64,000 bases of DNA from an uncultured bacterium. GTDB taxonomy: Bacteria > Zhuqueibacterota > QNDG01 > CAYUAG01. Of this stretch, positions 2,370 to 16,409 are shown one piece after another. How positions within the stretch are numbered: position 1 is the stretch's first letter; each line of letters opens with the position of its first letter. The notes under the pieces are model-generated. The model saw only the letters and a list, made by a program, of their open reading frames with translations. It had not been told where the DNA came from and did no database searches. The stretch covers positions 2,826-66,825 of the forward strand of contig CAZETW010000005.1 in NCBI GenBank assembly GCA_964515295.1. The letters run 5' to 3'. Position numbers and translations under genes: made by a program.

Positions 2370-2390
2370 AAATCCAGAAGAATTTTTTCA

Positions 2391-2580: not shown

Positions 2581-2596
2581 AATAAGCATTTGCTTA
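2581..2596. promoter_or_regulatory. Perfect palindrome ATAAGCAtttGCTTAT, candidate ArsR-family operator overlapping a TATAAT-like box for the Cys-rich ORF
   Basis: ATAAGCA/TGCTTAT arms lie between the arsR-like stop and the Cys-rich ORF. On the minus strand the palindrome is followed by TATATTATAAAT and the SD. The same ATAAGC...GCTTAT half-sites recur at 2917-2932. Confidence 0.45.
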
Positions 2597-2616
2597 TTAA
2601 CAATGCCAAAAAAATT

Positions 2617-2913: not shown

Positions 2914-2916
2914 TTT

Positions 2917-2932
2917 ATAAGCCTTCGCTTAT
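2917..2932. promoter_or_regulatory. Palindrome ATAAGCcttcGCTTAT next to the arsR-like start codon; candidate autoregulatory operator
   Basis: Same half-sites as 2581-2596. A further ATAAGC half-site and a TATGTTA...TAACATA inverted repeat follow at 2933-2957. Confidence 0.4.
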
Positions 2933-3008
2933 TATGTTATAAGCATATACTAACATAATAAATAAAAGCAGTAATGTCAAGGGAAAAATAAATTTTTTTT
3001 TAGCCTTG

Positions 3009-3071
3009 GTAACGTTCCTTACAATCACAGTTTTAAATACGATTGACAATCACTTGTTGGGAACGTTTTCC
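3009..3071. repeat. attC-like imperfect palindrome (63 bp)
   Basis: GGTAAC-GTTCCTTACAATCACAG...TGACAATCACTTGTTGGGAAC-GTTTTCC. The AACGTTCC/GGAACGTT and ACAA/TTGT arms pair with mismatches or bulges and are bounded by AAC and GTT. It lies 24 nt after the stop of the Y1 fragment. Confidence 0.4.
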
Positions 3072-3094
3072 TGGGACGGTCTCCGTCCATTCAC

Positions 3095-3463
3095 TCACCA
3101 TTCTGTACAAACAGGTATTAACCCTGTTCCCTGTACATAGTTACGGGCACTTGAGTATCTCCAGTGAACAGGATCATCAACATATCCTCGACGAATCGGA
3201 TTATAATGAATGTATTCAATCTTCCGAGTAGTTATTTTTCTTGTCCTCATTTGTTGTGGATGACTGCCTTCCTGCCAGACTTGATATTCCCTGTCCCTCT
3301 TAAATGTTTGTTTTCCATTGGAAAGTGCGCTTAAAATAAATTTAGAGCCGTTTCTTTTGTAATAATCCATAATCTGTCTGGCTGTATACGACTTGAAATT
3401 CCCCAATTCTTTGGAAAGATTATCTGATGATACTACCATATGCAAATGATTTTCCATAATCAC
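3095..3463 (-). pseudogene. 5'-truncated Y1 HUH transposase (IS200/IS605 TnpA or REP-associated RAYT-like)
   Basis: HUH motif ENHLHMVV sits almost at the N-terminus. The C-terminal YIHYNPIRRGYVDDPVHWRYSSARNY is typical of the family. Upstream in frame there are only 13 codons before a stop and no canonical N-terminal ~60 aa. Confidence 0.65.
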
Positions 3464-3593
3464 ATACGACAGGTGAACTTGACAACCAATATCCCTTATT
3501 TATCGTGTGCCATTGCCTTTAGGCAATGTCTTGCCACACCTATTTATTGAAAATTTATGTCATATCCGGATCACCCGACGGTTCATTGTATTG

Positions 3594-3956
3594 TTATTTG
3601 CTATGGTTAAGTTTAAATTTTTTTGCTATGGCATTTAGCCTTTGATCAAATGTCCAAAGTGGAATATCTGTTACCAAAGATGAAGCAAGAATTGCTACGT
3701 CAATATACCCCAAACCTTTACCCATAATTTTATTATTCTCAATAAAGATCATTATCTCGTCATGCTCTATAAGGGAAGATTGCGGTAAGGCTTTAAGGGC
3801 AGCTATAATTTCTTTTCTATTTTTTATGTTACCACACGCCAATTCTCCCAGAATGAATGGATGGCAAAATACCTCTCCATCATTTAGTAATTCAACGAGT
3901 TGATCATTACTATTTCTAAAATGATCAATCCATATAGAAGTATCGACTAAAACCAT
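3594..3956 (-). CDS. vapC: PIN-domain toxin VapC
   Basis: MVLVDTSIWIDHFR..., 120 aa, placed 6 nt after a VapB-like antitoxin gene. Confidence 0.85.
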   Translation of the reverse strand: MVLVDTSIWIDHFRNSNDQLVELLNDGEVFCHPFILGELACGNIKNRKEIIAALKALPQSSLIEHDEIMIFIENNKIMGKGLGYIDVAILASSLVTDIPLWTFDQRLNAIAKKFKLNHSK

Positions 3957-3962
3957 TTTTTA

Positions 3963-4151
3963 CTAATTTCGTCTTCTTGGTATATTGGTTAAATTCTTTT
4001 CTGTTCCACCAAGTTTTGCTAATCTTTTTGCACTTTCACGGGCAATTAATGCTTCAAGACCTAAACGTACGAGCGATGTCTTTTCTTTAATTCCAGTTAA
4101 TTTTGAGGCTTTATCGATTAGCGTGTCTTCAATGTTTAGTGTTGTTCTCAT
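3963..4151 (-). CDS. vapB: VapB-family antitoxin (62 aa)
   Basis: MRTTLNIEDTLIDKASKLTGIKEKTSLVRLGLEALIARESAKRLAKLGG. I placed the start at the internal ATG at 4151, preceded by AAAGGTG. The track start at 4202 has no SD. Confidence 0.8.
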   Translation of the reverse strand: MRTTLNIEDTLIDKASKLTGIKEKTSLVRLGLEALIARESAKRLAKLGGTEKNLTNIPRRRN

Positions 4152-4224
4152 AAACACCTTTATGTATTGTATGTGCATATTAATATGCATAATATAATGC
4201 ATTTTGTCAAGTATTTATTTAGCA

Positions 4225-4319
4225 TATAACGATACAACTGAGCAGCGCGACGCTAAATGAATCATTCTTTCTTTTAGGTAGGGTAGTGTAGGAGCGTCTT
4301 CTCCAGTTGTTCGTTATAC
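4225..4319. repeat. attC-like imperfect palindrome (95 bp)
   Basis: Arms TATAACGATACAACTG (4225-4240) and CAGTTGTTCGTTATA (4304-4318) are complementary except for one extra base in one arm. They are bounded by TATAAC...GTTATA. The site ends 5 nt from the ParE-family stop (4324). Confidence 0.5.
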
Positions 4320-4323
4320 CGGT

Positions 4324-4620
4324 TTATTCATTTACTTCCTCTGAGGGCAATATTTGTTTAAAGTGACGTACTGTTAAAATGAAAATTTCTTCTTGTCGTA
4401 CCTTGTAAATTATTCGATAATTACCATGAATTATTTCTCGTATATATGGTTTATTTGTTTCAGGAACAATGCGCCCACTTTTAGGAAATTTTTTCAAACA
4501 GTCAATAATTTTAAAAATTGATTCTACCCATTTGATTGAAACATCTGGATTATCTTTGGCTATATATTCTGATATTTCTGTCATTCGTTCTACAGATAAA
4601 GGTGACCAGATAATTTTCAT
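4324..4620 (-). CDS. RelE/ParE-family type II toxin
   Basis: 98 aa with ...IREIIHGNYRIIYKVRQEEIFILTVRHFKQ. It overlaps the upstream Phd/YefM gene by 4 nt. Confidence 0.8.
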   Translation of the reverse strand: MKIIWSPLSVERMTEISEYIAKDNPDVSIKWVESIFKIIDCLKKFPKSGRIVPETNKPYIREIIHGNYRIIYKVRQEEIFILTVRHFKQILPSEEVNE

Positions 4621-4898
4621 TTATTAAGCCTCTTGAGAATTTGAGTTTTAGCCTTATCATGACTTATACCTTGCCCTTTTTCTATTTGAGATTCAGCCAG
4701 TTCAATATCACTTAGTAGCTCGATTTTTTCTAATATTTTCTCATATTCAGCAACATCAAGTATTACGGCAGCACTTCTACCATGCTGTGTTAATACAATA
4801 GGTTTTTTGGTACGTTTAATTTCTTCAATTATTGAAGTGATATTTGCGCGAAAATCAGATAATGGTCTAATATTTGTTTCTAAATTTATTCTGTTCAT
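4617..4898 (-). CDS. Phd/YefM-family antitoxin
   Basis: MNRINLETNIRPLSDFRANITSIIEEIKRTKKPIVLTQHGRSAAVILDVAEYEKI. Start moved to the ATG at 4898, preceded by AAAGGAGG. Confidence 0.8.
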   Translation of the reverse strand: MNRINLETNIRPLSDFRANITSIIEEIKRTKKPIVLTQHGRSAAVILDVAEYEKILEKIELLSDIELAESQIEKGQGISHDKAKTQILKRLNK

Positions 4899-4955
4899 AA
4901 TACCTCCTTTTGTACAATTAATATGCCATTTAATGTACAAAATAAGAGATTAATT

Positions 4956-5080
4956 GTCAAACGTGATTTTCACCGGTCGAACCACCAACCGATTTTCCAA
5001 TAAAAGCAAATAATTCCACTAAACTTCAAAATTTGAAAAAATGGTGCGTGGTTCGATCCGCGTGCAAAATTTTGTTATAT
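4956..5080. repeat. attC-like imperfect palindrome (125 bp)
   Basis: Left arm is GTCAAAC-GTGATTTTCACCGGTCGAACCACCAACCG. Right arm is ATGGTGCGTGGTTCGATCCGCGTGCAAAATTTT-GTTATAT. The blocks ATTTT, CAC, CGG and TCGAACCAC pair, with four single-base bulges in one arm. The site ends 11 nt from the stop of the DprA-like gene (5091). Confidence 0.5.
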
Positions 5081-5090
5081 GTGCTCTCTG

Positions 5091-5618
5091 TCAGTACGCC
5101 TCATTTTCCAAGTTATCAGCGAAAATCAACCTGTCTTTTTCTTTTAATTTATTATATAGTTCTACCATCTTACCGCTTGCATCTACATAAGGGATGTATA
5201 TTTTTTTTGTAAGTTTGACCAGAAACTCATTCCGTTTATTACAGAGTTCTCTTGTCGGTCTTGTAATTAAGCCGTGAATTGGCGTTATGATTAAGATTCT
5301 ATTTTCATCTAAACCTGCTCGCCATAATTTCGGGAGACGCATATTATTCAATGACCTTGCTGGACAGATTACTATGGGTTGTATGCCTTTTATTAATACA
5401 TTCAGAATTTCCTGTTCAACCGGTGAATGAAATCCGCTGGCAATAACCAACCCATCTTCACGCCACTGGAAAGCCTGTTCCTGAATCTTTATGATAATAT
5501 TGCCTGGACATTTTGAAGAGCAAAGAAAAGCAAAATCGATTTGGTCAAGCAAACCAATGTTGCCGATATAATCGCAATGATAGTTTCGACTTTCCAAAGT
5601 CAGTTCAATATTATTCAT
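5091..5618 (-). CDS. Short DprA/Smf-like Rossmann-fold (SLOG-type) protein
   Basis: By eye, FAFLCSSKCPG...VIASGFHSPVEQEILNVLIKGIQPIVICPARSL...RILIITP...RPTRELCNKRNEF...YIPYVDASG parallels the DprA core (GSR..., SGxAxGID..AH, tiaVLgcG, SE.p, F..RNR, vvEa..SG). It overlaps the RhuM-like gene by 8 nt. Confidence 0.45.
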   Translation of the reverse strand: MNNIELTLESRNYHCDYIGNIGLLDQIDFAFLCSSKCPGNIIIKIQEQAFQWREDGLVIASGFHSPVEQEILNVLIKGIQPIVICPARSLNNMRLPKLWRAGLDENRILIITPIHGLITRPTRELCNKRNEFLVKLTKKIYIPYVDASGKMVELYNKLKEKDRLIFADNLENEAY

Positions 5619-6708
5619 CTTCTTCGCTTTTGAGTTTTTCCGGATTCTTTACGAATTTTTTGTCTTCCGATTTGATGTGTTTTTTCAAAAGATGTTTTTC
5701 CATTTCCTCCAATTGCTTCAAATCTTCTTCATTAGCAGCAAGTGCCTCTACTTTCTTTCTTTTCGCGTCAAATTCATTATAACGATCTTCGGCTATTTTT
5801 TTTGCAACCTCTGCTTTAACCTGACCTGCATGTGTTAAAAGATCTTGTTCATTGAATTTCAGAAATGCATCCAGCTTATCAGACCATTGGGCCATAGTAA
5901 CTGTTTTACGCTGGCGGGCTTGCCTTTCAGCATAATCCAGATACATGGTTACAATCTCATTAAGGTCTTTGATTTCCTCTGCCTTTAAATAATTCTTGGC
6001 AATACTCACATCTTGCTTGCGGACCACTGATCCTTTCCAGGATGTAAGCCCCATGTTGGGTTTGTTGGAATCGCCTCGTGATTCGATTAGCTCTGCTGCT
6101 GTTTTGCCTGTCACGGCCCAGAGCATTTTGTTCTGCACCTTTTTATAAAACGTTTGGGCCTGAGTAGATGTCTTGTCATAATCTATGGCTGTTGCATAGA
6201 TATCTCGGATTTTCTGATAGAAACGCTTTTCTGAGGCTCTAATATCTCGAATGCGCTCGAGCCATTCATCAAAATAATCCCACTGCTCTGCCTGCTTGAG
6301 GCGAGCGTCATCCATGGCAAAGCCTTTGATGATGTATTCTTTCAAAATCCGGGTCGCCCATATTCTGAATTGGGTGGCGCGTTTGGAATTTACTCGGTAT
6401 CCGACAGCGATGATGGCGTCCAGGTTGAAAAATTCCATCAATCGGGTGACGTCTCTGCCGCCTTCCTGTTGAACTGTTTCCATTTTGGAAACAGTTGCAT
6501 TTCTATCAAGTTCTCGCTCTTCATAAATATTTTTAAGATGTTTGGATATGGCCGGCACATTGACACCAAACAACTCCGCCATCTTCTTCTGCGTGAGCCA
6601 AATGGTCTCATCCTGAATTACTGTGTCTATCCTGATTTTGCCATCATCTGTGGTATAGAGGATTATTTCCGAACTATTCGTTTTCTTAACCATCAGTTCC
6701 TCTTTCAA
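5611..6708 (-). CDS. RhuM-family protein (virulence-protein RhuM/Fic-associated family) with K/E-rich coiled-coil tail
   Basis: ...IWLTQKKMAELFGVNVPAISKHLKNIYEERELD...AIIAVGYRVNSKRATQFRIWATRILKEYIIKGFAMDDARLKQ... is characteristic of RhuM. Confidence 0.75.
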   Translation of the reverse strand: MKEELMVKKTNSSEIILYTTDDGKIRIDTVIQDETIWLTQKKMAELFGVNVPAISKHLKNIYEERELDRNATVSKMETVQQEGGRDVTRLMEFFNLDAIIAVGYRVNSKRATQFRIWATRILKEYIIKGFAMDDARLKQAEQWDYFDEWLERIRDIRASEKRFYQKIRDIYATAIDYDKTSTQAQTFYKKVQNKMLWAVTGKTAAELIESRGDSNKPNMGLTSWKGSVVRKQDVSIAKNYLKAEEIKDLNEIVTMYLDYAERQARQRKTVTMAQWSDKLDAFLKFNEQDLLTHAGQVKAEVAKKIAEDRYNEFDAKRKKVEALAANEEDLKQLEEMEKHLLKKHIKSEDKKFVKNPEKLKSEEDE

Positions 6709-6732
6709 AGCATTTAAGAATACACATTGCTT

Positions 6733-7011
6733 TCATGCAACTTGTGGGGACAGTCCAAGTTTAACCTGCAACTCGGCGCCTGAACCAATCAAGACCATTT
6801 TCCCGACGTCGGCAAAATGGTCTGCAACCTCGTGACCCGCGGTCTCACAAGCTGTTTTCGCTTTTGAAATGACTTTAACAAAGTTATCCCATTTCGAATA
6901 ACCCAATAGATGCTGTAAATCTCTGGCAAACCAGAATTCAATGTCATTAGCTGTTTTATTGGCATGGGTTTCAAAATCTTTGGTTAGTGTTTTGATGATT
7001 TCCTTTTTCAT
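6733..7011 (-). pseudogene. DinD-like (DNA-damage-inducible protein D) N-terminal fragment, truncated after ~85 aa
   Basis: IEFWFARDLQHLLGYSKWDNFVKVISKAKTACETAGHEVADHFADVGKMVLIGSGAE matches the DinD N-terminal half. The expected LSRYACYL... C-terminal half is absent, and the RhuM-like gene starts 25 nt downstream. Confidence 0.6.
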
Positions 7012-7412
7012 TGCATGTCCTTTAAAAGTGTATAGCCCAAGATCGTTTTGTTGACGTCAACAAAATGATCGAGTATTTTATGACCTGATGTTTCACAGGC
7101 TGTTTTTGCCTTATTGATGACTTTGTTAAAATTTCGCCATTCGGTGTAGCCCAGCAAATGCTGAAGATCGCGGGCAAACCAGAATTCAATCCGACCTTTG
7201 ATGGCCCTCGATATTCATCGTGGGCCTCTTTGGGGGAGGGATATCCATCCCGCTGGGTTGGGCAGGGAAGATTCTACTTTTTTCACCTCCCAATATTCGC
7301 TCTTAACAAAAATCGTTGCTATTTCAAATGTACAGAAATAATAAGAAATTTTAGCTGGATCAATTTTGTATTTTTGCATTTTTTTCACTCTTAGTAAGCA
7401 TGGTAATAACAT
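7008..7412 (-). pseudogene. Second DinD-like fragment fused in frame, across an internal TGA, to an unrelated 5' ORF
   Basis: Hand translation gives ...LPQRGPR*ISRAIKGRIEFWFARDLQHLLGYTEWRNFNKVINKAKTACETSGHKILDHFVDVNKTILGYTLLKDMQ*. The in-frame TGA is at 7215-7217. There is no start codon after it. The terminal TGA overlaps the ATG of the 6733..7011 fragment (ATGA). Confidence 0.55.
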
Positions 7413-7517
7413 TCATTAGTCAGTATCTTAGCCCCTAATCCACCCATCGGGATACATATCCCTCTCCATTTTATGCCCAGGATGAATATCCAGGGCAATC
7501 AGCTTTTATGTTATATA

Positions 7518-7814
7518 CTAATCAATAACTCTATCAATCCAGTATTCTGGTACTCTATGTTGGTGTGCTACTGCTAAAATATAAATTTTATTATTATATT
7601 TGGTATAAACTAAATTATAGGGAAACTTTCTTAATACCGCTTTTCTTGTATTTTTTGTAATTTCTGACCATACTTCCGGAAAAATTTTTATCAGTTCAAT
7701 TGTCTTTAAAACTTCATCAAAGAATCCATCTCCAAGCCCTGGAGATTCAAGATTATAATATTTTACAGCGTCATCTAATTCAATTGATGCAGGCTCAATA
7801 AATTCAACATTCAT
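7518..7814 (-). CDS. RelE/ParE-family type II toxin
   Basis: 98 aa with ...AVLRKFPYNLVYTKYNNKIYILAVAHQHRVPEYW. Its ATG abuts the stop of the upstream antitoxin gene. Confidence 0.75.
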   Translation of the reverse strand: MNVEFIEPASIELDDAVKYYNLESPGLGDGFFDEVLKTIELIKIFPEVWSEITKNTRKAVLRKFPYNLVYTKYNNKIYILAVAHQHRVPEYWIDRVID

Positions 7815-8024
7815 TTATTTATACCGTTTTACAATTTCATCTAAAGGTACAGTATCTACTTTTCCTTCTTTTAATGCCTGATATCTTTTTTCTGATTCTT
7901 CAGCCCATATTTTTTCTATTTCTTTATCAGGTTTATCAAGACTTTGTGTTAATTTTTCAATTAACCGAAGTCTTTCGGCCGGCCTTAATTGTAATGCTTC
8001 TTTTAATATTGTTTTTGTATTCAT
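7815..8024 (-). CDS. Addiction-module antitoxin component (TIGR02574-like)
   Basis: 69 aa: ALQLRPAERLRLIEKLTQSLDKPDKEIEKIWAEESEKRYQALKEGKVDTVPLDEI. Confidence 0.7.
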   Translation of the reverse strand: MNTKTILKEALQLRPAERLRLIEKLTQSLDKPDKEIEKIWAEESEKRYQALKEGKVDTVPLDEIVKRYK

Positions 8025-8190
8025 TTATATACTCCCTAAATAGGATGAATTCATTATTATCAATTAACAACTATTTGCAATATACAAAAGCAGTTTCTAT
8101 TATTCAATAAGTAATAATTTAGATTTACCCAGTTTAATTTAAATATCTATTATTTTCAACATTCAGAGTATTGTCTTGTATATATTTAGA

Positions 8191-8381: not shown

Positions 8382-9584
8382 TCATAAATATTTGATTTTA
8401 CATGCAAATTTGCCCGCCCCGTTATGCAAATAAACATAATTCCACCACCATGCAGACAGGTATTTTACAATCATTTCTTTTCTGGCTCTATAAGATTTAT
8501 AATGCTTCATAATACCCAGGTATGAATTCATGCTGCTGAGGAACTTCTCCTGTTCCACCCTTGTCGGCTTATGGTCACGAGCTATTTGATTTTGTTTCTC
8601 AATTGATTCATAAAAGTTACCCTTTGTACGGTTGGCAATATAAACCCGGTGCGGTTTGATTACAGCACCAGGATATTTTACACCTTTTGTAAAATGCTGA
8701 AGGTATATTTTATTGGGATGCAGATCCAGCCTCAAGTATATTTTGAGGTATGATTTAATTACCGGAATCAAGGATTTCAAATATTCTTTGTCTTTATGAA
8801 TCAGAATGAAATCATCCACATACCGGCCATAATATCTGATTTTCAAATCTCTTTTCATAAAATGATCGAATTCATTCAGGTAAACATTTCCGAATAATTG
8901 TGAAGTTAAATTTCCGATGGGCAGGCCGCAATCAGGACCGGAATGAAAAAGGCTTTTATCGTTTGGTAAACCCTGCCAGTCTTTTCTGCAGCCCTTGGTG
9001 ATGCAATCTTGGGTTGGATCGTTGAAAATGATTTTTTCGAGCAAATAAAGAACCAGATGTAAATCAAAATCCGCTCTGCCGGGTGCCGCAGATAAGGCTG
9101 ATTTGATTTTTTCAAAAAGCAGCCGTCGGTTCATGGCCATAAAATAGCCGCGGATGTCCAGTTTTAAGATATGGCAATCTTCAGTATAATTTAATGAGCA
9201 TGACCGGATAAAATGATCAATCCGTTTGATTCCGTAATGCGTGCCTTTACCCTTGCGGCAGCTGTAGCTGTCATTAATAAACATGCCCTCAAAAACAGGT
9301 GCAAGATAATTATAGAGCAAATGATGCACCACCCTGTCACGGAAGTTCGCGGCGAAGATTTCGCGCTTAACGGGTTTATTCACAATAAAAAAGATGCTTT
9401 TTCTCGGTTCGTAGGTGCGGTTCATGATCTCTTCATGCAATTCAAAAAGATTCGTTTCAAAATGTTTTTCAAAAGCCAGCGCATTGATGGTGTTCCTTTT
9501 ATTCCAGCGGGCGTCAAAATACGCCTGAAACAGATCTAACAACAGTTTCTCTTCATTTTGTTCGTCAAACAATGTTGTCTGCAT
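8382..9584 (-). CDS. Diversity-generating retroelement reverse transcriptase
   Basis: 400 aa with RT motifs, including the DGR-type GLPIGNLTSQLFGNVYLNEFDHF (SQ in place of QG) and the catalytic YGRYVDDFILI. It lies adjacent to a TR/VR pair and an avd gene. Confidence 0.9.
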   Translation of the reverse strand: MQTTLFDEQNEEKLLLDLFQAYFDARWNKRNTINALAFEKHFETNLFELHEEIMNRTYEPRKSIFFIVNKPVKREIFAANFRDRVVHHLLYNYLAPVFEGMFINDSYSCRKGKGTHYGIKRIDHFIRSCSLNYTEDCHILKLDIRGYFMAMNRRLLFEKIKSALSAAPGRADFDLHLVLYLLEKIIFNDPTQDCITKGCRKDWQGLPNDKSLFHSGPDCGLPIGNLTSQLFGNVYLNEFDHFMKRDLKIRYYGRYVDDFILIHKDKEYLKSLIPVIKSYLKIYLRLDLHPNKIYLQHFTKGVKYPGAVIKPHRVYIANRTKGNFYESIEKQNQIARDHKPTRVEQEKFLSSMNSYLGIMKHYKSYRARKEMIVKYLSAWWWNYVYLHNGAGKFACKIKYL

Positions 9585-9591
9585 TTTATCT

Positions 9592-9620
9592 GCATGGCGG
9601 CCCGTCCAAGGCCGCCATGC
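9592..9620 (-). other. GC-rich hairpin between TR and the RT start (perfect 11-bp stem, 7-nt loop)
   Basis: GCATGGCGGCC-cgtccaa-GGCCGCCATGC. It lies 16 nt after the TR 3' end and 7 nt before the RT ATG on the minus strand. No SD is visible for the RT. Confidence 0.6.
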
Positions 9621-9636
9621 CCTTTTGACTGTTTTA

Positions 9637-9831
9637 AATCCCGAATAAGCCGGATACTAAAACCGTTTTGCTTATTGTTGTTGTTACGGTTCACGTCTGA
9701 ATTATTGTAATTCAGGTTCCGGTTCCACGCGTTATTGGTATTGTTCTCGGTAGACGACCCAAAATTGGCGTTGTTGCCGAGATTGTTGAAGTTACCATTG
9801 TTGTTGCGGTAACCACCGGGAAGCGCGGAAA
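9637..9831 (-). repeat. DGR template repeat (TR), 195 bp
   Basis: Aligns without gaps to 10471-10665 (offset 834). By hand count there are 39 mismatches. Of these, 37 fall at plus-strand T, which is adenine on the transcribed minus strand of the TR. The TR reading frame is Asn-rich (about two dozen AAY codons). Confidence 0.9.
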
Positions 9832-9985
9832 TAAAAGCAGCCGCTGAATTAATCATGCCTTCATTCTCAGAAAACATGAACTGATACCTCGCAAAAAAAC
9901 ACAAGGGGGCTGCCGGATTTAAATACGCTCGCTTGCCTGCGCCGTGGCGGCAGGCAACTCTGGCTGAACAGTCTAATACAGTTTT

Positions 9986-10016
9986 AAAGTTAAAAGTTGT
10001 AAAGTTCATAAAGTTT
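9986..10016. repeat. Left arm of the inverted repeat bracketing avd (overlaps the avd stop codon)
   Basis: The reverse complement AAACTTTATGAACTTTACAACTTTTAACTTT matches 10370-10401 (AAACTTTATGAACTTTATAAACTTTTAACTTT) with one mismatch and one 1-nt indel. Confidence 0.8.
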
Positions 10017-10353
10017 TAACAAGTCCGGATATGATTTTTGAGATTTCTTCAGCCTTTGCAGATAATTCATCTGCTTGGTTTTGTTTTAATATACTCATCG
10101 CACCTGCCAATAAAAGCATTGACCTGACCTCACCGCATGAGCCTTTGGCAACAAACAGAAAATGCTTGAATTCATTGTTTGATCTTCTTTCAAACCCCTC
10201 TGCAATATTATTCATTATTGAAACACAAGCGCGCTGAATTTGGTCTTTAAAACCATAATCTTTGCTGTTCTCAAACAGCTTGTAAACTTGAATTGTCAGC
10301 AGCTTCGCCTTCTGCCACGCAATAATTTCTTCAAACCTGTTAATCTTCATCAA
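10006..10353 (-). CDS. avd: DGR accessory variability determinant (Avd), four-helix-bundle protein of the 23S rRNA-intervening-sequence-protein family
   Basis: 115 aa: ...AWQKAKLLTIQVYKLFENSKDYGFKDQIQRACVSIMNNIAEGFERRSNNEFKHFLFVAKGSCGEVRSML. This is typical of TIGR02436/PF05635-type proteins. It is located between VR and TR. Confidence 0.8.
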   Translation of the reverse strand: MMKINRFEEIIAWQKAKLLTIQVYKLFENSKDYGFKDQIQRACVSIMNNIAEGFERRSNNEFKHFLFVAKGSCGEVRSMLLLAGAMSILKQNQADELSAKAEEISKIISGLVKTL

Positions 10354-10369
10354 TAACTTTCAACTTTAT

Positions 10370-10401
10370 AAACTTTATGAACTTTATAAACTTTTAACTT
10401 T
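10370..10401. repeat. Right arm of the inverted repeat bracketing avd (16 nt upstream of the avd start)
   Basis: See 9986-10016. The arm is embedded in a run of AACTTT-type hexamer units (10357-10406). Confidence 0.8.
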
Positions 10402-10420
10402 CAACTCAAAAATATTTTCG

Positions 10421-10437
10421 ATTCCGCTTCGCGGAAT
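10421..10437 (-). other. Small hairpin ATTCCGC-ttc-GCGGAAT 33 nt downstream of the VR end; candidate DGR target-site hairpin/cruciform
   Basis: 7-bp perfect stem with a 3-nt loop (GAA on the transcribed strand), just 3' of the target gene stop. Confidence 0.5.
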
Positions 10438-10468
10438 AAATAGTATAATAGTCGAATAGATAAATAGT

Positions 10469-11158
10469 CTAATCCCGAATAAGCCGGATACTATAACCGC
10501 CTTGCTTACCGCCGTCGCCACGGTACACGTCTGAAACACTGTAACCCAGGACCCGGCTCCACGCGCGATAGGTACCGTACTCGGTAGACGACCAAAAATA
10601 GGCGTAGTAGCCGAGAAGGCGGAAGCCACCATTGCCGTGGCGGGAACCACCGGGAAGCGCGGAAAAGCCGCTTTCATTCGTCGCACCTTCATTCGGACTC
10701 CCCCAATGTGTTGTGCCGGTTGTCTTCATCTTGCCGCCAGCAACTTCTTCGCCTCCAAGATAGTTTACCAATGTTGCCCACTCTGCGTCTGTAGGCACAT
10801 GCCAGCCTGAGGGAGCAATATTATGAACATCTGTGACAGCAAACCAGTTATATAAATAACCGTATATATCTGCGGTACTTTCACTATTATCAAAAGCACA
10901 ATAAGCGCCTGTTGATAGATTTTCCCATTGTGAATTGTCTGTAACATGATTTATCGGGGTACCGTCACAGTAATGGGTCACCTTCAAATTCTCGGCCATC
11001 CATACCTGATTACCTATTTTTACGGTTTGATATACATTACCGTCAATATCCTTAACCGTATCCGAAACCGTATTCTCGGTTGGACTCTTTTTGTTGCATC
11101 CCGTTATGAGCATCATAAATAACACTACAACCGTTAATAATGACATTGCTTTTTTCAT
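10469..11158 (-). CDS. DGR target: surface lipoprotein with a Fibrobacter-succinogenes-major-paralogous-type domain and a C-terminal variable region
   Basis: Signal peptide plus lipobox (LITGC). DIDGNVYQTVKIGNQVWMAENLKVTHY...YGYLYNWFAV...APSGWHVPTDAEWATL is typical of TIGR02145. The last ~65 codons are the VR. Confidence 0.85.
   Translation of the reverse strand: MKKAMSLLTVVVLFMMLITGCNKKSPTENTVSDTVKDIDGNVYQTVKIGNQVWMAENLKVTHYCDGTPINHVTDNSQWENLSTGAYCAFDNSESTADIYGYLYNWFAVTDVHNIAPSGWHVPTDAEWATLVNYLGGEEVAGGKMKTTGTTHWGSPNEGATNESGFSALPGGSRHGNGGFRLLGYYAYFWSSTEYGTYRAWSRVLGYSVSDVYRGDGGKQGGYSIRLIRD
10471..10665 (-). repeat. DGR variable repeat (VR), 195 bp, at the 3' end of the target gene
   Basis: See the TR entry. 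The final ~22 nt before the stop are identical to the TR. Confidence 0.9.
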
Positions 11159-11591: not shown

Positions 11592-11620
11592 TTGACAAAG
11601 CTTTAAAAAGGTGTTATTTT
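11592..11620 (+). promoter_or_regulatory. Sigma70-like promoter candidate (TTGACA-17 nt-TATTTT) for the ATP-grasp operon
   Basis: TTGACA at 11592-11597 and TATTTT at 11615-11620, about 45 nt before the GTG start at 11665. Confidence 0.35.
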
Positions 11621-11664
11621 AATTTGCAGTTTTGATATTTCATTAAAAACAGAGGAATTAGGAA

Positions 11665-13815
11665 GTGAAAGTTGCTATAATTTATAATGAAGATTTAACC
11701 GGGGTCATCAATCAGTTCGGTATACAGAATAAGGAAATTTATAATCCAACTACGGTAAAATTGGTAGCTGATTCTCTGGAAAAGGGGGGACATAATGTCA
11801 AAGTCATAGACGGCAACATGCAGGTCATAGAGAGCCTGACTGAATTTATGCCCCGGGTGGTTGAAGGCGAACGTATGGGTATGGTGTTTAATATGGCTTA
11901 TGGTATACAGGGAGAAAGCCGGTATACACATCTTCCGGCCATGCTGGAGATGATGGGTATTCCTTATGTAGGTTCCGGCCCCACCGGACATGCAATGGCT
12001 CTTGATAAAGTAATCACAAAAATAATTTTTCAACAGCATACTATTCCCACTCCGGATTTCTGGGTGCTGTCCAGTCCGGATGATGATGTTAGTGAAATTA
12101 GTTTTCCGGTTATAGTAAAACCAAAAATGGAAGCCGTTTCTTATGGTCTTAAAGTTGTTAATAATAAAAGAGATTTACGTAATGCAGTGAAATTTATCAT
12201 TTCAGAATTTCAACAGCAGGCTCTTGTAGAACACTTCATCAGAGGAAGAGAGTTCTGTGTTGCTTTGCTTGGCAATGGTAATCCTGAAGTATTTCCCATT
12301 GTAGAAATAAATCTTGAGAATGATCCTGATGCAATTCAGACTGTTGAAGATAAAAAACAGAAACCAAGAGAAAAAATATGTCCTGCGGATCTGCCCTCTG
12401 AGATAGAATCAGCTATGATTGCAGCCAGTAAAAAAGCCTTTCGGGCTCTGGAATTGAAAGATTTTTCCAGAGTTGATATTCGTATGGATAGTGAAAATAA
12501 TATATATATCTTAGAAATTAATTCAATGGCAAGTCTCGGTAAAACCGGATCTTATGTTTATGCTGCCTCCAAGGTCGGATATACATATTCTCAATTGGTT
12601 AATAAGATGCTGGATGTAGCTGCTGTACGTTATTTTTCTCAACCATCAGTTCAGGATGAGGTAAAAGATGAAAAATCAGCTTTATCAGTACGTATAAGAG
12701 GATTTTTAAGGAGCAGACAGACAAAAACAGAGAAGTTGCTGAAGAAAATGACTGATATTAATACCCATACCAGAAATGTAGAAGGGGTAAACAGATGCGG
12801 TAATATAATATGGGAAGAGCTGAGTAAACTGGGTTTCAGTCAGCAGGTTATCCCCCAAATTCAAATAGGGAATATGCTTTTTTTTACTAACACTATTAAG
12901 AAAAATTATGATGCACTTGTTCTGATACATCTTGACTCTTCTGTCAGTTTCAGAAAACAGCAGAATTATCAAGTGGATAAAAATAGAATTTACGGAACAG
13001 ATGTATGGGAAAGTAAGGGGGGGTTGGCTGTTTTAATATCAGCCCTGCAGGCTTTGCGATTTGTAAGAAAATTACATAGAACAAGAATCGGAATTTTGCT
13101 TACTACTGACAATAAAGCAGGTGGGAGGGTAGCAAGAGAACATATTCTGAATATATCCAGAAAAGCCAGAGTAATCATTGGATTAAAGGGGGGAGGAATA
13201 AAAGGAACAGCCATTACTTCCCGTTCCGGAGCAGCACAGTATTCCTGTCAGATGAATTTTGAGAAAGGCAGTGAAGCAGAAGAAGTAGCTCAAGCCATAG
13301 AAAAATTCACCAGGATTCTTACCAGATGGACTAAATTTACCGATGCTGCTACAGGTGTGGTTGTGTCTCCCAGTAAAGTTGAAATTGATACGAATATTTC
13401 AGAGGTGGTTGCTCACGGTGAGGTAATGCTCAGTGTCCGTTTTAACACTCTGGAAATGGGAGAAGAAGTTGATGAGAAGATTCGCAATGTTATTAAAAAA
13501 AGTCATTCAGGGAATTTTCGAGTGCAAATCGAAGGTGGTATACGACGCCCACCACTCTTAAAAACGGAAAAAAGAGAGAAATACTGGGCACGGATAAAAG
13601 CTATAGCTGATAAAATTGACATCAGACTGCTGGAAGAACATCGCTGGAGTTCCTCAGATGTATGTTTTATTCAGGATGATAAACCAGTGATTGACGGTAT
13701 AGGTCCGGTGGGAGCTAAACATCGGGAGCAAAGTGGCTATATATTGAGGCACAGCCTTTTGGAACGGGCAACGCTTCTGGCCCTTATTCTTAATGATTTG
13801 AGTAAGGAGAAATAA
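11665..13815 (+). CDS. Fusion protein: Ddl-like ATP-grasp ligase (N-terminal) plus M20-peptidase-like domain with substituted catalytic residues (C-terminal)
   Basis: The N-terminal ~320 aa have the D-Ala-D-Ala-ligase-family ATP-grasp layout (...FPVIVKP...EHFIRGREF...ILEINSMASLG). The C-terminal part has M20-like LVLIHLDSSV, GTDVWESKGG and GPVGAKHREQSGYI, but the DEE(I)GS motif reads TTDNKAGG. GTG start with SD. Confidence 0.65.
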   Translation: MKVAIIYNEDLTGVINQFGIQNKEIYNPTTVKLVADSLEKGGHNVKVIDGNMQVIESLTEFMPRVVEGERMGMVFNMAYGIQGESRYTHLPAMLEMMGIPYVGSGPTGHAMALDKVITKIIFQQHTIPTPDFWVLSSPDDDVSEISFPVIVKPKMEAVSYGLKVVNNKRDLRNAVKFIISEFQQQALVEHFIRGREFCVALLGNGNPEVFPIVEINLENDPDAIQTVEDKKQKPREKICPADLPSEIESAMIAASKKAFRALELKDFSRVDIRMDSENNIYILEINSMASLGKTGSYVYAASKVGYTYSQLVNKMLDVAAVRYFSQPSVQDEVKDEKSALSVRIRGFLRSRQTKTEKLLKKMTDINTHTRNVEGVNRCGNIIWEELSKLGFSQQVIPQIQIGNMLFFTNTIKKNYDALVLIHLDSSVSFRKQQNYQVDKNRIYGTDVWESKGGLAVLISALQALRFVRKLHRTRIGILLTTDNKAGGRVAREHILNISRKARVIIGLKGGGIKGTAITSRSGAAQYSCQMNFEKGSEAEEVAQAIEKFTRILTRWTKFTDAATGVVVSPSKVEIDTNISEVVAHGEVMLSVRFNTLEMGEEVDEKIRNVIKKSHSGNFRVQIEGGIRRPPLLKTEKREKYWARIKAIADKIDIRLLEEHRWSSSDVCFIQDDKPVIDGIGPVGAKHREQSGYILRHSLLERATLLALILNDLSKEK

Positions 13816-13816
13816 A

Positions 13817-15442
13817 GTGGATTTTGAAACAATAGAATCAAATTTTATCCCCTCAGAAGATGGTAAAACTGCAATGGGCGAAAACGGAGCAGTTGCAACA
13901 GCTTTTCCGGAAGCAACAGAAGCGGGAATAGAAATATTGAAGAAAAGAGGCAACAGTGTTGATGCAGCCTGTGCAGCAGCTCTAACTTTAAGTGTATGTG
14001 AACCCCAGGCCAGCGGTCTGGGCGGTCAGACAATGCTGCTTATAAGTAAAGGTGGCAAGGTTATAGCTGTAGATGGCAGTTCCAGAGCTCCTTCTCTGAG
14101 TCATGTCGGAGCGGTGTATAAAAGAGACAGAGCCAGCGGTTACAGAGCTACTACAGTACCGAGTACACTGGCAACTCTTGGATATGTACAAAGAGAATAT
14201 GGTAATTTAAAGTGGCGGCAAATCGTGGAACCAGCCTTGAGGATAGCCACTGAAGGCTACAGAATAACTGAATTACAACACAGACTCCAGCAAAGAGAAA
14301 TTGAGAAATTCCGAAAGATTGAATCACAGTCAGGATTATATTATTTTTATAATGAGGGGAAGCCATATAATGTTGGGGACACCTTTAAACAATTGGATTT
14401 AACGGCACTTTTAAAAAGAATTGCAGAGAAGGGAGCGGAGGAGTTTTATATCGGAACTACTGCGCAGCGAATTGATGCTGATATGAGAGAAAACGGCGGA
14501 CTGCTGCGGGCAGATGATCTGGCACTCATCCCCTGGCCTATAGAAAGGAAACCGTTGCGGGGAATATTCCGTGATTTTACTGTATATACTATGCCGCCTC
14601 CAGGTTCGGGTCGCAGTCTTCTTTTTTGTTTAGCTCTCCTTGACAGGCTATCACCAGAAGATCTACAACAGGATAGTTCAGAAATAGGGGTACTGCTTGC
14701 AGAAATTTTCAGAAATGTTCTTCTGGAGCGTTCGGACAGACCATTTGATGCTAATTTTTATCCACAGGTTAATGAAAAAGAGATGCTGAGCAGATCATTC
14801 ACAAGAAAGACAATAAAAAAAATTCTTTCAACTGCAGCCCCTACCTTACCTATCAGAGAGACCGAGGATGAACATGCTGGAGAAACAACACATCTTTCAG
14901 TGATGGACAGTAATGGTATGGCGGTGAGCCTGACACAGTCTATAGAGCGGGTATATGGGAGTAAAGCCGCAGCTCAGGGACTGGGATTCCTATACAATAA
15001 TTATATGATGGATTTTGAATACAAAATAATTCCGCATCCGTATTATCTGCGTCCCAATGCAGTACCCTGGGCAACAGTGGCTCCCAGTATTCTTTTCCAT
15101 GATAAAGACGTATGGATGGCTCTTGGAAGTCCCGGCAGTGAGCGTATAATATCAACCCTGGCTCAATTTCTTATACATGTTATTGATGAAGGTATGTCTC
15201 TTGGTGAAGCTATGCGTTTGCCCAGATTACACTGTTCCCTGGGGGGAAGAGTGAGCATGGAAGCAGAACGTTTTTCGAAAGAGTTTACTTTTTCTCTGAA
15301 AGATAAAGGATATCGGATAAAAGAAAGAGAACCATATTCTTTTTTTCTGGGTGCAGTGCATGCAGTTATGAAATGTCGGAACAGAAAGGAATTTCAGGCA
15401 GTGGCAGAAGTGAGAAGAGACGGTACAGCTGCAGGGTTTTAA
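13817..15442 (+). CDS. ggt: Gamma-glutamyltransferase (Ntn hydrolase)
   Basis: ...GGQTMLLI..., autoprocessing/catalytic region HAGETTHLSVMDSNGMAVSLTQSIERVYGS, and GSPGSERIIS. The GTG start lies 1 nt after the upstream stop. Confidence 0.85.
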   Translation: MDFETIESNFIPSEDGKTAMGENGAVATAFPEATEAGIEILKKRGNSVDAACAAALTLSVCEPQASGLGGQTMLLISKGGKVIAVDGSSRAPSLSHVGAVYKRDRASGYRATTVPSTLATLGYVQREYGNLKWRQIVEPALRIATEGYRITELQHRLQQREIEKFRKIESQSGLYYFYNEGKPYNVGDTFKQLDLTALLKRIAEKGAEEFYIGTTAQRIDADMRENGGLLRADDLALIPWPIERKPLRGIFRDFTVYTMPPPGSGRSLLFCLALLDRLSPEDLQQDSSEIGVLLAEIFRNVLLERSDRPFDANFYPQVNEKEMLSRSFTRKTIKKILSTAAPTLPIRETEDEHAGETTHLSVMDSNGMAVSLTQSIERVYGSKAAAQGLGFLYNNYMMDFEYKIIPHPYYLRPNAVPWATVAPSILFHDKDVWMALGSPGSERIISTLAQFLIHVIDEGMSLGEAMRLPRLHCSLGGRVSMEAERFSKEFTFSLKDKGYRIKEREPYSFFLGAVHAVMKCRNRKEFQAVAEVRRDGTAAGF

Positions 15443-15478
15443 AAGAGGATACGATACAAGACATTCACAGGAGGAAAA

Positions 15479-16270
15479 GTGAAAAAACTTCCTCTATTAA
15501 TTACTGTTGTCCACGGTGGTGAAAAAATTCCTGCTGAATTAAAGAAGTATAATAATCTTTCATATTCAGATATTCTGGAGGATATTGACACCTTTTCAAG
15601 AGATGTTTATGATTTATCTGAAGAAGTACAGCATTATTTGGATACAGACATTGCCCGTCCCTATATTGATTTGAACAGAGCAGTTGATGACTGGCCGCCT
15701 GACAATAAAGATGGAGTAATAAAAACTGAAACTGTATTTAAGGTACCTGTATATACAAATGGATTTTTCCCTGATGATGATCTTATAGAGATAATACTGC
15801 AGAAATACTATTATCCTTTTTATAATAGGTTATATGAAAAAGAATCTTCCCCTGGTCTGATTGCAGGACTTGACTGTCATACTATGCTGCCTTTATCACC
15901 TCCTATCAGTAATTCTCCGAGAGTTAAACGGCCATTGGTTTGTTTAAGCAATGGAGGGGATCATGAAGGTAAACCCCTGTCAATAAACAAAATAACAACC
16001 TGTTCAGTTGACTTTATTCAGCAACTTGCAGAAAGTTTTATACATGCATTACAGTGCGGAAAAGAACAGATTGGGATCAATAATCCCTTCCGGGGAGGAA
16101 AAGTTATTCAGTCCCGCAGGAAGGGCATCATACCCTGGGTGCAAATTGAATTGAATAGGAAATTATATTTGAACCAACATCAACCATTGAAAAAGGATAA
16201 AAACATAATAAAAGAAGTAAATAAATTAATATTGAGTGTTTTTAAAGATTTTGTTTGTAAATTGTATTAG
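15479..16270 (+). CDS. N-formylglutamate amidohydrolase-family (FGase-like) protein
   Basis: LLITVVHGGEKIPAE... and GLDCHTM motifs resemble the FGase family. Strong SD (AGGAGG) before the GTG. Confidence 0.55.
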   Translation: MKKLPLLITVVHGGEKIPAELKKYNNLSYSDILEDIDTFSRDVYDLSEEVQHYLDTDIARPYIDLNRAVDDWPPDNKDGVIKTETVFKVPVYTNGFFPDDDLIEIILQKYYYPFYNRLYEKESSPGLIAGLDCHTMLPLSPPISNSPRVKRPLVCLSNGGDHEGKPLSINKITTCSVDFIQQLAESFIHALQCGKEQIGINNPFRGGKVIQSRRKGIIPWVQIELNRKLYLNQHQPLKKDKNIIKEVNKLILSVFKDFVCKLY

Positions 16271-16409
16271 GAAATCATATATGAAACTTTATATTATAAT
16301 AAGTAGTAAAATAAGCTGATTGTAAAAGAATACTGAACTCTAAAGTGTTGAAAATAAAAATATAAATTTGTAACTTTTAGCAACGCCAGATTTTTTAAAG
16401 GAGGGTATT

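Follow-up and report, generated by a model that had tools for sequence, protein, structure and literature searches.

Does this locus hold a complete and still active DGR, or an element that has lost part of its machinery? A sequence-only reading of the window (the whole 64-kb stretch of DNA analysed here) had described the first: a complete, apparently active DGR diversifying the C-terminus of a surface lipoprotein. The element is a genuine DGR, with an adenine-specific TR/VR pair, a DGR-type reverse transcriptase (RT), the layout target-accessory-TR-RT and a GC hairpin after the VR. It is also incomplete: its clade's cognate avd is missing, and a paralogue encoding an IVS protein stands in the operon instead, on an IVS-like, selfish-type cassette. 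The core of the element consists of the following.

10469..11158, minus strand: target gene, encoding a 229-aa protein of the FISUMP / Fib_succ_major type with an apparent signal peptide and lipobox (LITGC); PF09603, TIGR02145
10471..10665, minus strand: VR, covering target residues 166-229 (the last 64 codons) and the stop codon's first base
9637..9831, minus strand: TR (template repeat), with 63 adenines and 24 AAY codons
8382..9584, minus strand: DGR reverse transcriptase of 400 aa with both IGNLTSQ and YVDD preserved; RVT_1 E 2e-12

Re-alignment of the TR and VR reproduced the coordinates and counts given earlier in full: 195 nt without gaps (80% identity) and 39 mismatches, 37 of them at TR adenines, the only exceptions lying at plus-strand positions 9660 and 9760. 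With 63 adenine positions available, at least 37 of 39 mismatches would fall on them by chance with P = 1.8e-20 (hypergeometric). The 37 adenines (of 63) that changed became G in 23 cases, T in 9 and C in 5, and the 3′ ends of the two repeats are identical. In the target frame, 22 mismatches are at codon position 1, 17 at position 2 and none at position 3. The TR-encoded and VR-encoded peptides differ at about 26 residues, 24 of them through adenines; the earlier figure of about 65 diversified residues was thus an overstatement. No second VR was found within the 64-kb window.

The RT was judged by the motif-4 signature [ILV]GxxxSQ, the catalytic YxDD and family-model scores. IGNLTSQ and YVDD are both in the translation, as had been read. 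The best solved homologue is 8ub7_A (E 3.6e-31), which we take to be the bRT of Bordetella phage BPP-1, and its IGSLTSQ aligns with IGNLTSQ; among columns that are at least 95% conserved, the RT departs at one only (Y138H). Models of group II, retron and Drt RTs match weakly, all far under their curated cut-offs (e.g. 99.5 versus 300 bits; for the retron model, 36.5 bits against a cut-off of 235). We collected 131 related RT loci, 84 of which have their own adenine-biased TR/VR pair. The hosts of this clade are Bacteroidota, Calditrichota/Marinimicrobia-like bacteria and Patescibacteria, and the element in the window is chromosomal.

The proposal that the target is a Fib_succ_major lipoprotein is supported: PF09603 matches strongly and over its full length (176.8 bits, cut-off 33.9; E 7e-52), TIGR02145 scores 134.5 bits (cut-off 41.65; E 6e-39), and a putative lipobox (pattern [LVI][ASTVI][GAS]C) is visible in the translation as MKKAMSLLTVVVLFMMLITGC, with its ITGC. 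The protein has more than 7,800 homologues in the protein database, the nearest at 65% identity. An AlphaFold model of the full-length target is good (pLDDT 86, pTM 0.81) and one of the C-terminal part alone is poor (pLDDT 60). Foldseek comparison of the model with the PDB gave no significant match (the top entries are snake C-type-lectin-like proteins, E 0.37-5, TM at most 0.34), and even a profile search of the PDB returned no sequence relatives; these comparisons did not confirm a C-type-lectin fold. This class of target is already known for DGRs, as category 'd' (PMC5758913). The target shares a weak Lcl_C/DUF1566 match with the Legionella pneumophila DGR (LdtA) and the 'category d / CLec2' DGRs (Wu et al. 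2018), from which it differs in its strong, full-length Fib_succ_major match. The Legionella element is ICE-borne and has both avd and an MSL (PMC5758913), whereas here there is neither bAvd nor MSL.

Two features adjoin the VR.

10438..10469, minus strand: four tandem octamers, GACTATTT ATCTATTC GACTATTA TACTATTT, between VR and hairpin, read from the sequence
10421..10437, minus strand: GC hairpin with a 7-bp stem and GAA loop, 33 nt after the VR and followed by TCGAAAATATTTTT; it forms in RNA and in either DNA strand

The hairpin is where it had been placed earlier, and its distance is inside the range of 4-34 bp described for hairpins or cruciforms after a VR, with a loop of 3 nt rather than 4 (PMC3240598). 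Relatives have similar hairpins, looped by GAA or GTA. Of 70 distinct VRs, 50% are followed by an in-register octamer array of at least three copies, against 0% for the TRs that belong to them and 0.9% for random windows. This suggests that the octamer array (GACTATTT) and the GAA-loop GC hairpin together single out the VR, as opposed to the TR, as recipient.

On the TR side are the following RNA elements.

9967..9973, minus strand: upstream duplex strand GACUGUU, pairing with 9627-9633 in the spacer 3′ of the TR (MFE fold)
9830..9964, minus strand: RT-7 RNA motif (Rfam RF03028), four helices, reaching the TR's first base; Rfam E 4.5e-14
9933-9957, minus strand: helix 1 of RT-7, the hairpin 5′ of the TR, within the Rfam RT-7 match
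9915..9923, minus strand: linker within RT-7, UUUAAAUCC, the complement of the TR's 3′ end; in the MFE fold it pairs with 9633-9641 (GGAUUUAAA)
9592..9620, minus strand: 12-bp GC stem-loop in the 52-nt TR-RT spacer; −26.5 kcal/mol, z = −6.1

The sequence-only reading had listed three hairpins (the one after the VR and those at 9933-9957 and 9592-9620) and a spacer of about 52 nt. All three exist and the spacer measures 52 nt; the stem at 9592-9620 has 12 bp, not 11, and that at 9933-9957 is one stem of the larger RT-7 motif. The match spans the whole RT-7 model (positions 1-191) at 65.4 bits, its shorter variable inserts keeping it under the gathering score of 116.8. The eight relatives with an RT-7 match score 38-79 bits, likewise below the gathering score, and with a purpose-built model the region scores 126 bits. 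As in the published RT-7 (Weinberg et al. 2017), the full model is matched by the same helices, and these covary: in an alignment of 67 distinct sequences that had been fitted to the model, pairing holds in 95.4% of cells, as against 39-66% in shuffled and slid controls, and every one of the 34 pairs has changed on both sides. An independent MAFFT/RNAalifold run on eight sequences found compensatory changes in 24 of the 34 pairs.

RT-7 adjoins the TR across the clade. The pairing of the RT-7 linker with the TR 3′ end covaries (e.g. CAGUCC:GGACUG and UAGUUC:GAACUA; 8.04 versus 6.47 +/- 0.22 for permuted partners), as does the duplex of 9967-9973 with 9627-9633 over 47 loci (8.09 versus 6.55 +/- 0.19 for permuted partners), and the MFE fold recovers both. 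At the position of the spacer stem-loop, which is that of the 'Avd-binding stem-loop' (10.1101/2023.10.23.563531), 10 relatives have a hairpin of different sequence. Taken together, the folding and covariation point to a TR RNA that would form a closed loop, with RT-7 directly 5′, two long-range duplexes, and then the 12-bp stem-loop. RT-7 was given no function in the original paper, in which only RT-10 was linked to a DGR (PMC5737381); here this orphan Rfam motif is placed as a 5′ leader abutting a DGR TR. The DGR and its target class are of known kinds, and these clade-level RNA findings are the new and useful part of the analysis.

Comparison with the BPP-1 DGR (mtd-avd-TR-brt) shows how much of this architecture is shared. 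The two elements are alike in gene order (target-accessory-TR-RT), in adenine-specific transfer from the TR to the 3′ end of the target gene, and in an RT that aligns with 8ub7_A. The spacer of BPP-1 is about 140 nt long, and the one here is shorter. In both, the VR is closely followed by a GC hairpin (PMC3240598), with a loop of GRNA in BPP-1 and of three nucleotides (GAA) here. Upstream-downstream RNA pairing around the TR and a stem-loop just 3′ of it are also common to both (10.1101/2023.10.23.563531). However, BPP-1 is phage-borne and its target is Mtd, and the element here is chromosomal with a FISUMP lipoprotein as target; a 135-nt RT-7 domain lies between accessory gene and TR only in the latter; the strand pairing with the TR 3′ end is upstream here (in RT-7) and in the downstream spacer in BPP-1; and the cognate Avd is absent here. 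In topology alone, the leader also resembles retrons (msr-msd), in which inverted sequences flank a structured leader and template, and the strand that pairs with the template's 3′ end lies upstream with the polarity of a primer. Unlike in retrons, the RT is of a non-retron type by the model score given above and the template is protein-coding with a VR partner.

The missing component becomes apparent between the VR hairpin and RT-7.

10370..10406, minus strand: cassette left arm, an (AAAGTT)n array; a 37-nt inverted repeat, 78% complementary to 9980-10016
10006..10353, minus strand: 115-aa 23S-rRNA-IVS-protein (S23p / four-helix-bundle) gene in the usual place of avd; PF05635
9980..10016, minus strand: cassette right arm, an (AACTTT)n array, pairing with 10370-10406

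This open reading frame had been taken for avd. Its product is instead a PF05635 (23S_rRNA_IVP) paralogue, matching that family at 114.4 bits (cut-off 33.8) and TIGR02436 at 112 bits (cut-off 24; E 1.6e-32), against only 19.5 bits for bAvd; purpose-built profiles give 192 bits for IVP and 13 for the clade's bAvd. The accessory proteins of relatives, in contrast, match bAvd (PF22296) at 46-80 bits, and a BLASTP comparison with the Avd of the closest relative gave no alignment. A bAvd-type gene is present in all 84 relatives that have a TR/VR pair, whereas tblastn and profile searches found no such reading frame anywhere in the 64-kb window, and the DGR thus cannot be called complete. Among all catalogued DGRs, about a quarter lack avd.

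The cassette is built like the 23S rRNA IVS of Coxiella, Leptospira and Xanthomonas, where the two ends around an S23p / PF05635 reading frame are complementary and pair into a long stem (PMC4990558). When the cassette RNA is folded (MFE, z = −4.8), its arms pair as the terminal stem, and such arms exceed shuffled controls in 61 of 77 loci homologous to the IVP gene; AAAGTT-type arrays also flank this gene family in other phyla. The known IVS are inside 23S rRNA genes and are cut out by RNase III; here the window has no rRNA, the cassette is inside a DGR operon, and the arms are tandem AAAGTT-type repeats.

Could the DGR be complete and active after all, with the IVS-type four-helix-bundle paralogue having taken over the role of Avd? 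The protein is intact and occupies the exact avd position, its pI of 9.17 is within the range of the clade's bAvd (9.39 +/- 0.25), and it is homologous to the pentameric S23p structures 2gsc (E 6e-12) and 2rld, from the superfamily to which Avd belongs (PMC10053308); in addition, the RT and every RNA element are intact. It could thus stand in for Avd, but we consider this unlikely: an IVP-type protein is used alone in 0 of the 84 relatives with a TR/VR pair; related DGRs that carry the IVP gene (L172, L067, L128) have it as an add-on beside bAvd; an RT is nearby in only 2 of the 80 closest IVP homologues, and both of those loci have bAvd too; pairwise comparison detects no similarity between the protein and the cognate Avd; and a Trp-to-Gly change in the TR, described below, is absent from the VR. 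Also compatible with the intact RT and RNA elements would be a bAvd acting in trans from elsewhere in the genome, for example from a second DGR. Experiments have shown that avd, TR and brt function in trans (PMC5758913), and some related MAGs do have more than one DGR RT (L040 and L128 are in the same MAG). Yet bAvd is absent from all 64 kb of the window, in the survey of PMC5758913 avd-less cassettes proved to have no avd gene at a distance, and the TR defect and unchanged VR again point the other way, which makes trans supply improbable.

That the locus is not a DGR at all, and is an ordinary duplication beside an RT from a retron, a group II intron or a defence system, has almost no probability. 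The sub-threshold matches to group II, retron and Drt models speak for it, but these are far below the curated cut-offs, the best solved homologue (8ub7_A) is taken as a DGR RT, and 84 relatives have TR/VR pairs of their own. The adenine bias (P 2e-20) refutes it already; an ordinary duplication with a non-DGR RT is ruled out by the adenine-specific mismatches.

We think it rather probable that a chromosomal DGR here once diversified the tip of a FISUMP lipoprotein, lost its cognate avd, and is now likely impaired or frozen. The steps of TR-to-VR transfer are established DGR biology, and the TR/VR pattern itself is observed here. In this element, the template would have been a leader-TR-spacer RNA in which the RT-7 linker pairs with the TR 3′ end and the spacer pairs with the bases immediately upstream of RT-7. 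The RT, misincorporating at adenines, would have turned it into cDNA that took the place of the final 64 codons of the surface lipoprotein gene and altered 24 residues. The ancestor most likely had both avd and the IVP gene, and recombination between repeat arrays may then have deleted avd. Relatives offer possible counterparts of such arrangements: L172 has the layout array-bAvd-array-IVP-arm-RT-7, its two arrays being direct repeats (84.5% identical), L001 has bAvd and a degenerate cassette, and in L050 fragments of bAvd and IVP are fused to each other, along with an RT remnant. With avd gone, the DGR is probably impaired or frozen now. The RT reading frame, RT-7, duplexes, spacer stem-loop, AAY codons, TR/VR 3′ ends and VR hairpin are all intact, so any loss of function would have to be recent.

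An impaired or frozen element would also fit a mutation at the Trp189 codon of the TR, which reads GGG (Gly) where the VR has TGG. Trp189 is invariant in the 66 target homologues compared; its codon is TGG in both TR and VR of 12 relatives, and the residue is kept in 34 of the 35 relatives' TRs in which the motif was located. This change has not passed into the VR. Two Logan assemblies (SRR7048218 and SRR7048220) match the locus of the window at 100% identity across 5 kb, the VR included; the three identical VRs presumably come from one study, given the consecutive run accessions. The protein database held no further VR allele of this target. With Gly for an invariant Trp in the TR and the same VR in both assemblies, the description of the element as apparently active is not supported and is somewhat doubtful. 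The clade, on the other hand, is active in nature, judging by the VR alleles of loci with identical TRs: relatives of this kind from different samples have five distinct VRs each, differing at 35-37 TR-adenine columns, and only three columns vary in the 300 nt upstream.

Against impairment, the Trp-to-Gly change in the TR is one single mutation. Two non-adenine mismatches are common in relatives, 12 of 69 distinct TRs having exactly two, and active relatives, too, show a few non-A changes.

The window element is a genuine diversity-generating retroelement (DGR); its type is known, and it adds a new member to a clade that is already well populated. Its target gene, a 115-aa ORF, its template repeat (TR) and its reverse transcriptase (RT) gene all lie on the minus strand, with the variable repeat (VR) at the 3′ end of the target gene:

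8382-9584, minus strand, RT gene
9637-9831, minus strand, TR
9980-10016 and 10370-10406, cassette arms, a 37-nt inverted repeat of AAAGTT-type units
10006-10353, minus strand, 115-aa ORF
10438-10469, minus strand, octamer array between the VR stop codon and a GC hairpin
10469-11158, minus strand, target gene
10471-10665, minus strand, VR, a 195-nt ungapped repeat with the TR

As a sequence-only reading had claimed, TR and VR align without gaps over 195 nt with 39 mismatches, 37 of which fall at sense-strand adenines of the TR (the chance of at least 37 of 39 at A positions is 1.8e-20), and the two exceptions lie at plus-strand positions 9660 and 9760. The TR holds 63 A, and the 37 that are altered became G (23), T (9) or C (5); mismatches are confined to codon positions 1 or 2, and the TR contains 24 AAY codons. 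Where that reading counted ~65 diversified residues, 26 of 64 residues actually differ, 24 of them via adenines. A second VR was sought in the window and none was found. The translated RT carries IGNLTSQ and YVDD, Group II, retron and Drt models score far under their cut-offs, and the best solved relative is chain 8ub7_A (deposited as “Reverse transcriptase”; E 3.6e-31), which we take to be the Bordetella phage bRT. The target belongs to the Fib_succ_major/FISUMP proteins (E 7e-52) and has an ITGC lipobox. Targets of the DUF1566/DUF823/Fib_succ_major type, the Legionella lipoprotein LdtA among them, account for 14% of DGRs in the catalogue of Wu et al. (PMC5758913); because this target class and the gene order have already been catalogued, the element is ordinary as a FISUMP/DUF1566-type lipoprotein diversifier. 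Foldseek of the target model against the PDB gave no significant match, PDB sequence and profile searches were empty, a BFVD search returned other FISUMP proteins only, and a model of the C-terminus alone was too poor in quality for structure search. Exact look-up in public assemblies yielded no record of the RT or the 115-aa ORF, the target protein alone being matched. A 157-aa ORF (9536-10009, minus strand) was rejected as a gene; it is the TR and its leader read in frame, with an Asn-rich translation.

RT scans recovered 51 genomic and 80 metagenomic related loci (34-72% identity), whose MAG labels include Calditrichaceae, Bacteroidales, Neomarinimicrobiota, Patescibacteria and others. With a simple DGR finder based on self-BLAST, 84 of these 131 loci proved to have a TR/VR pair with adenine bias, for a total of 69 distinct TRs. 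The clade is demonstrably active and diversifies in natural settings: groups of loci that come from separate samples but have one and the same TR carry up to five distinct VRs each, a number reached in both of two groups (L013/L015/L161/L163/L164/L177 and L155/L156/L158/L159/L162/L204). Within such groups the VRs differ at 35-37 TR-adenine columns and at two or three others, and the 300 nt upstream are variable at just three columns. Four RT relatives look degenerate: in two the RT is frameshifted (L026, L030), and in two it is intact with neither a TR/VR pair nor an avd nearby (L160, L198).

Two things make the window element of interest: avd appears to have given way naturally to an IVS-like cassette, and RNA and DNA elements were uncovered that are found clade-wide. 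The ORF between VR and TR had been read as avd; it is instead a paralogue in the 23S-rRNA-IVS-protein family (IVP, or S23p), scoring 114 bits on 23S_rRNA_IVP (PF05635) versus 19.5 bits on the Avd family bAvd (PF22296). On profiles built from 80 IVP homologues and from 8 clade Avds, its scores are 192 bits and 13 bits, respectively, and BLASTP against the Avd of L001, the closest full relative (RT 71% identical), gave no alignment. The relatives’ accessory proteins start MAKYDELPVYKASYDLL and match bAvd at 46-80 bits. A bAvd-type gene is present in all 84 relatives with a TR/VR pair, and in 103 loci in total; a bAvd-profile search of the other ORFs in the window found no match, and the description of this DGR as complete does not stand. 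Comparison with relatives exposes a complete-looking DGR as lacking a clade-universal component, a caution for annotation: a PF05635 match at a site between VR and TR need not be the cognate Avd. Of the 80 genomic homologues nearest to the window IVP protein (54-71% identity, from several phyla), two have an RT within 3.5 kb, and both of those loci also carry bAvd. Five relatives have an extra ORF of 150-183 aa between VR and avd with a faint MutS_I match (L006, 2438-2899; L007, 3659-4210; L009; L016, 1326-1781; L172, ~1074-1540), probably MSL, an accessory gene in Wu et al. 2018; the window lacks an ORF of this kind.

The way in which avd may have been lost is suggested by three related DGRs that are intermediate stages. 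In L172 the order is array, bAvd, array, IVP gene, arm and then the RNA motif RT-7, and the two arrays repeat each other in direct orientation, with 84.5% identity over 84 nt. In L001 a degenerate cassette comes after bAvd. L050 (a Ca. Neomarinimicrobiota MAG, 1-460) is a decayed relative in which a piece of bAvd runs out of frame into a C-terminal fragment of IVP, after which come an (AAAGTT)9/(AACTTT) palindrome and an RT remnant that is truncated, reads YVND and is 87% identical to the window RT. The window and L001 have CGAAAATATTTTT in common after the VR hairpin, directly followed by the array in the window and by avd in L001. We infer an ancestor with both the bAvd and the IVP gene, from which the window lineage lost avd when arrays recombined with each other.

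The gene that is left sits within a cassette whose arms are predicted to form the terminal stem of its RNA (z = -4.8). This is the design of the classical S23p-encoding intervening sequences of 23S rRNA, in which RNase III cuts the complementary termini on either side of an ORF (PMC4990558). Of 77 homologous IVP loci, 61 have flanks with more complementarity than shuffled controls, and the arms are AAAGTY/RACTTT repeats in Bacteroidota, Patescibacteria, Nitrospirota and others; at least three repeats occur on both flanks in 37 of the 77, versus 0.8% of background windows. Among the homologues of the window IVP gene (L054-L133), inverted arrays surround IVP/TIGR02436 genes with AAAGTY upstream and RACTTT downstream, at a period of 8-9. 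A limited literature search for a description of AAAGT arrays found none, which is not proof of novelty.

A second repeat array lies beside the VR. At their 3′ ends TR and VR match as far as the stop codon and differ beyond it, and the VR flank holds two to six in-register octamers (consensus GACTATTT) followed by a GC hairpin. At least three copies are present after 50% of VRs and 0% of TRs, compared with 0.9% of random windows; arrays of two to six copies occur after the VRs of relatives L001-L026, Patescibacteria relatives included, and never after a TR. A perfect-stem finder (at least 6 bp) gave 20 of 70 for the hairpin, a value not usable as a frequency because the finder missed short CCGC-GAA-GCGG hairpins. 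The octamer array may bind a protein, mark the target or belong to the avd promoter. We propose that the array and the GNA-loop hairpin, rather than IMH/IMH* differences, would mark the VR as recipient. Together with the AAAGT arrays of the IVP genes, the octamers suggest recognition of repeat sequences by four-helix-bundle pentamers.

On the RNA side, the Rfam motif RT-7 (RF03028) matches 9830-9964 on the minus strand (E 4.5e-14, below the gathering score). All three hairpins of the sequence-only reading are real; the one at 9933-9957, however, is the first stem of RT-7 and no stand-alone hairpin, and the one in the TR-RT spacer has 12 bp (z = -6.1), not 11. The RT-7 match ends within a few nucleotides of the TR start in 8 of 9 relatives. 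A model made from eight sequences matches the window once and is found upstream of the RT in most of 100 loci (87 matches at E <=0.01), with its 3′ end at most 6 nt from where TR/VR homology begins in 32 of 39 loci. Across 67 distinct sequences in an alignment fitted to the model, 95.4% of cells in its four helices are paired and 34 of 34 pairs show compensatory changes; an independent MAFFT/RNAalifold run on eight sequences gave 24 of 34. RT-7 is the TR leader, abutting the TR. Weinberg et al. left RT-7 unassigned and tied RT-10 alone to a DGR (PMC5737381); we found no paper linking RT-7 to DGRs in a limited search, which does not prove novelty. In L023 (Paludibacter sp. 221, NZ_QVMH01000013.1, 1243-4179), seven tandem units lie between avd and RT, each made up of an RT-7-like leader and, after it, a segment resembling TR/VR; similarity among the segments is 62-88%, and by eye they seem to differ mostly at AAC-type codons. 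This locus may be a multi-template DGR or hold tandemly inserted copies of a mutagenised template.

Two long-range duplexes connect the leader region to the TR 3′ end and the spacer. In the first, UUUAAAUCC of the RT-7 linker (9915-9923) is paired to GGAUUUAAA at the 3′ end of the TR (9633-9641); in the second, GACUGUU just 5′ of RT-7 (9967-9973) is the partner of AACAGUC in the spacer (9627-9633). Each covaries across loci, at 8.04 versus 6.47 +/- 0.22 and 8.09 versus 6.55 +/- 0.19 for partner-permuted controls, respectively, and both are present in the MFE fold of a 401-nt RNA (z = -5.5). An orphan Rfam family thereby gains a precise place and two covarying long-range helices. The duplexes match the “distal upstream/downstream duplex” reported for 207 of 278 DGRs (10.1101/2023.10.23.563531); here the partner of the TR 3′ end is upstream and would have the polarity of a primer. 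The spacer stem-loop, kept in position and not in sequence across relatives, sits where an Avd-binding stem-loop has been proposed (10.1101/2023.10.23.563531). A terminator scan gave a lone terminator-like match at this stem-loop, on the wrong strand, and a sigma-70 promoter scan is uninformative for this kind of organism.

These features are consistent with a mechanism in which RT-7 would be the functional 5′ half of the DGR RNA in this clade, and its linker, paired with the TR 3′ end, would let cDNA be primed from the upstream leader. Such a topology would be retron-like, in contrast to BPP-1, which primes from the downstream spacer. That this RNA half, leader priming, the octamer and hairpin mark on the VR, and a natural avd knockout in the window all hold jointly is a tentative proposal that we consider possible rather than probable. 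If true, avd has been knocked out naturally in the window element, and an S23p paralogue of IVS type either rescues the system or does not; the proposal also provides a testable model for the organisation and priming of DGR RNAs outside the BPP-1 type.

Whether the window DGR still works was weighed from several sides, and we lean, with some reserve, towards its being impaired or frozen. In the model system bAvd is essential together with bRT (PMC5758913; 10.1101/2023.10.23.563531). In addition, the VR reads TGG at Trp189 but the TR reads GGG; this residue is invariant in 66 homologues, encoded by TGG in both TR and VR of 12 relatives and kept in 34 of the 35 relatives’ TRs where the motif was found. 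The TR therefore mutated after the last fixed homing event, and homing from the present TR would destroy the conserved Trp. Two Logan assemblies (SRR7048218 and SRR7048220) carry the VR unchanged, and a search for VR alleles found no target homologues at 66-99% identity. The sequence-only reading had called the DGR apparently active; with bAvd absent, Trp189 changed to Gly in the TR and an identical VR in two assemblies, its activity is somewhat doubtful. Rescue by the IVP paralogue acting for Avd is unlikely, even though that protein is intact and as basic as Avd; its pI was dropped as a discriminator, bAvd being equally basic. Rescue in trans by bAvd strikes us as slightly less likely again. 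In favour of activity, every RNA and DNA element is intact, and the window RT has one odd substitution (Y138H), like intact relatives. An impaired or frozen state remains the reading that we prefer. The two non-adenine mismatches were dropped as a sign of decay; they are unremarkable, since 0, 1, 2 or 3 such changes are seen in 23, 20, 12 and 9, respectively, of the 69 distinct relatives’ TRs, and active relatives show them too. Of the two, only the Trp-to-Gly change in the TR is informative. One Logan contig (SRR7048220; L052) is 100% identical to the window and ends inside the TR at 9704; there is no 31-mer common to TR and VR at the break, where low coverage or variation is possible.

The window DGR is chromosomal and lies at a synteny break (flanks 1-8100 and 11600-16300). 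One flank carries PIN, RhuM, Bro-N fragments and ParE/antitoxin genes, and the other carries housekeeping genes (ATP-grasp/M20, gamma-glutamyltranspeptidase and FGase). MAGs with 81-87% identical housekeeping flank genes have unrelated sequence where the DGR would be; because these relatives share nothing upstream of the ATP-grasp gene, there is no definable empty site. Farther along the window, tRNA-Leu(CAA) (17666-17751) adjoins three very large minus-strand ORFs of 1688, 1603 and 1062 aa (17817-30923), and a 2542-aa ORF lies on the plus strand at 38912-46540.
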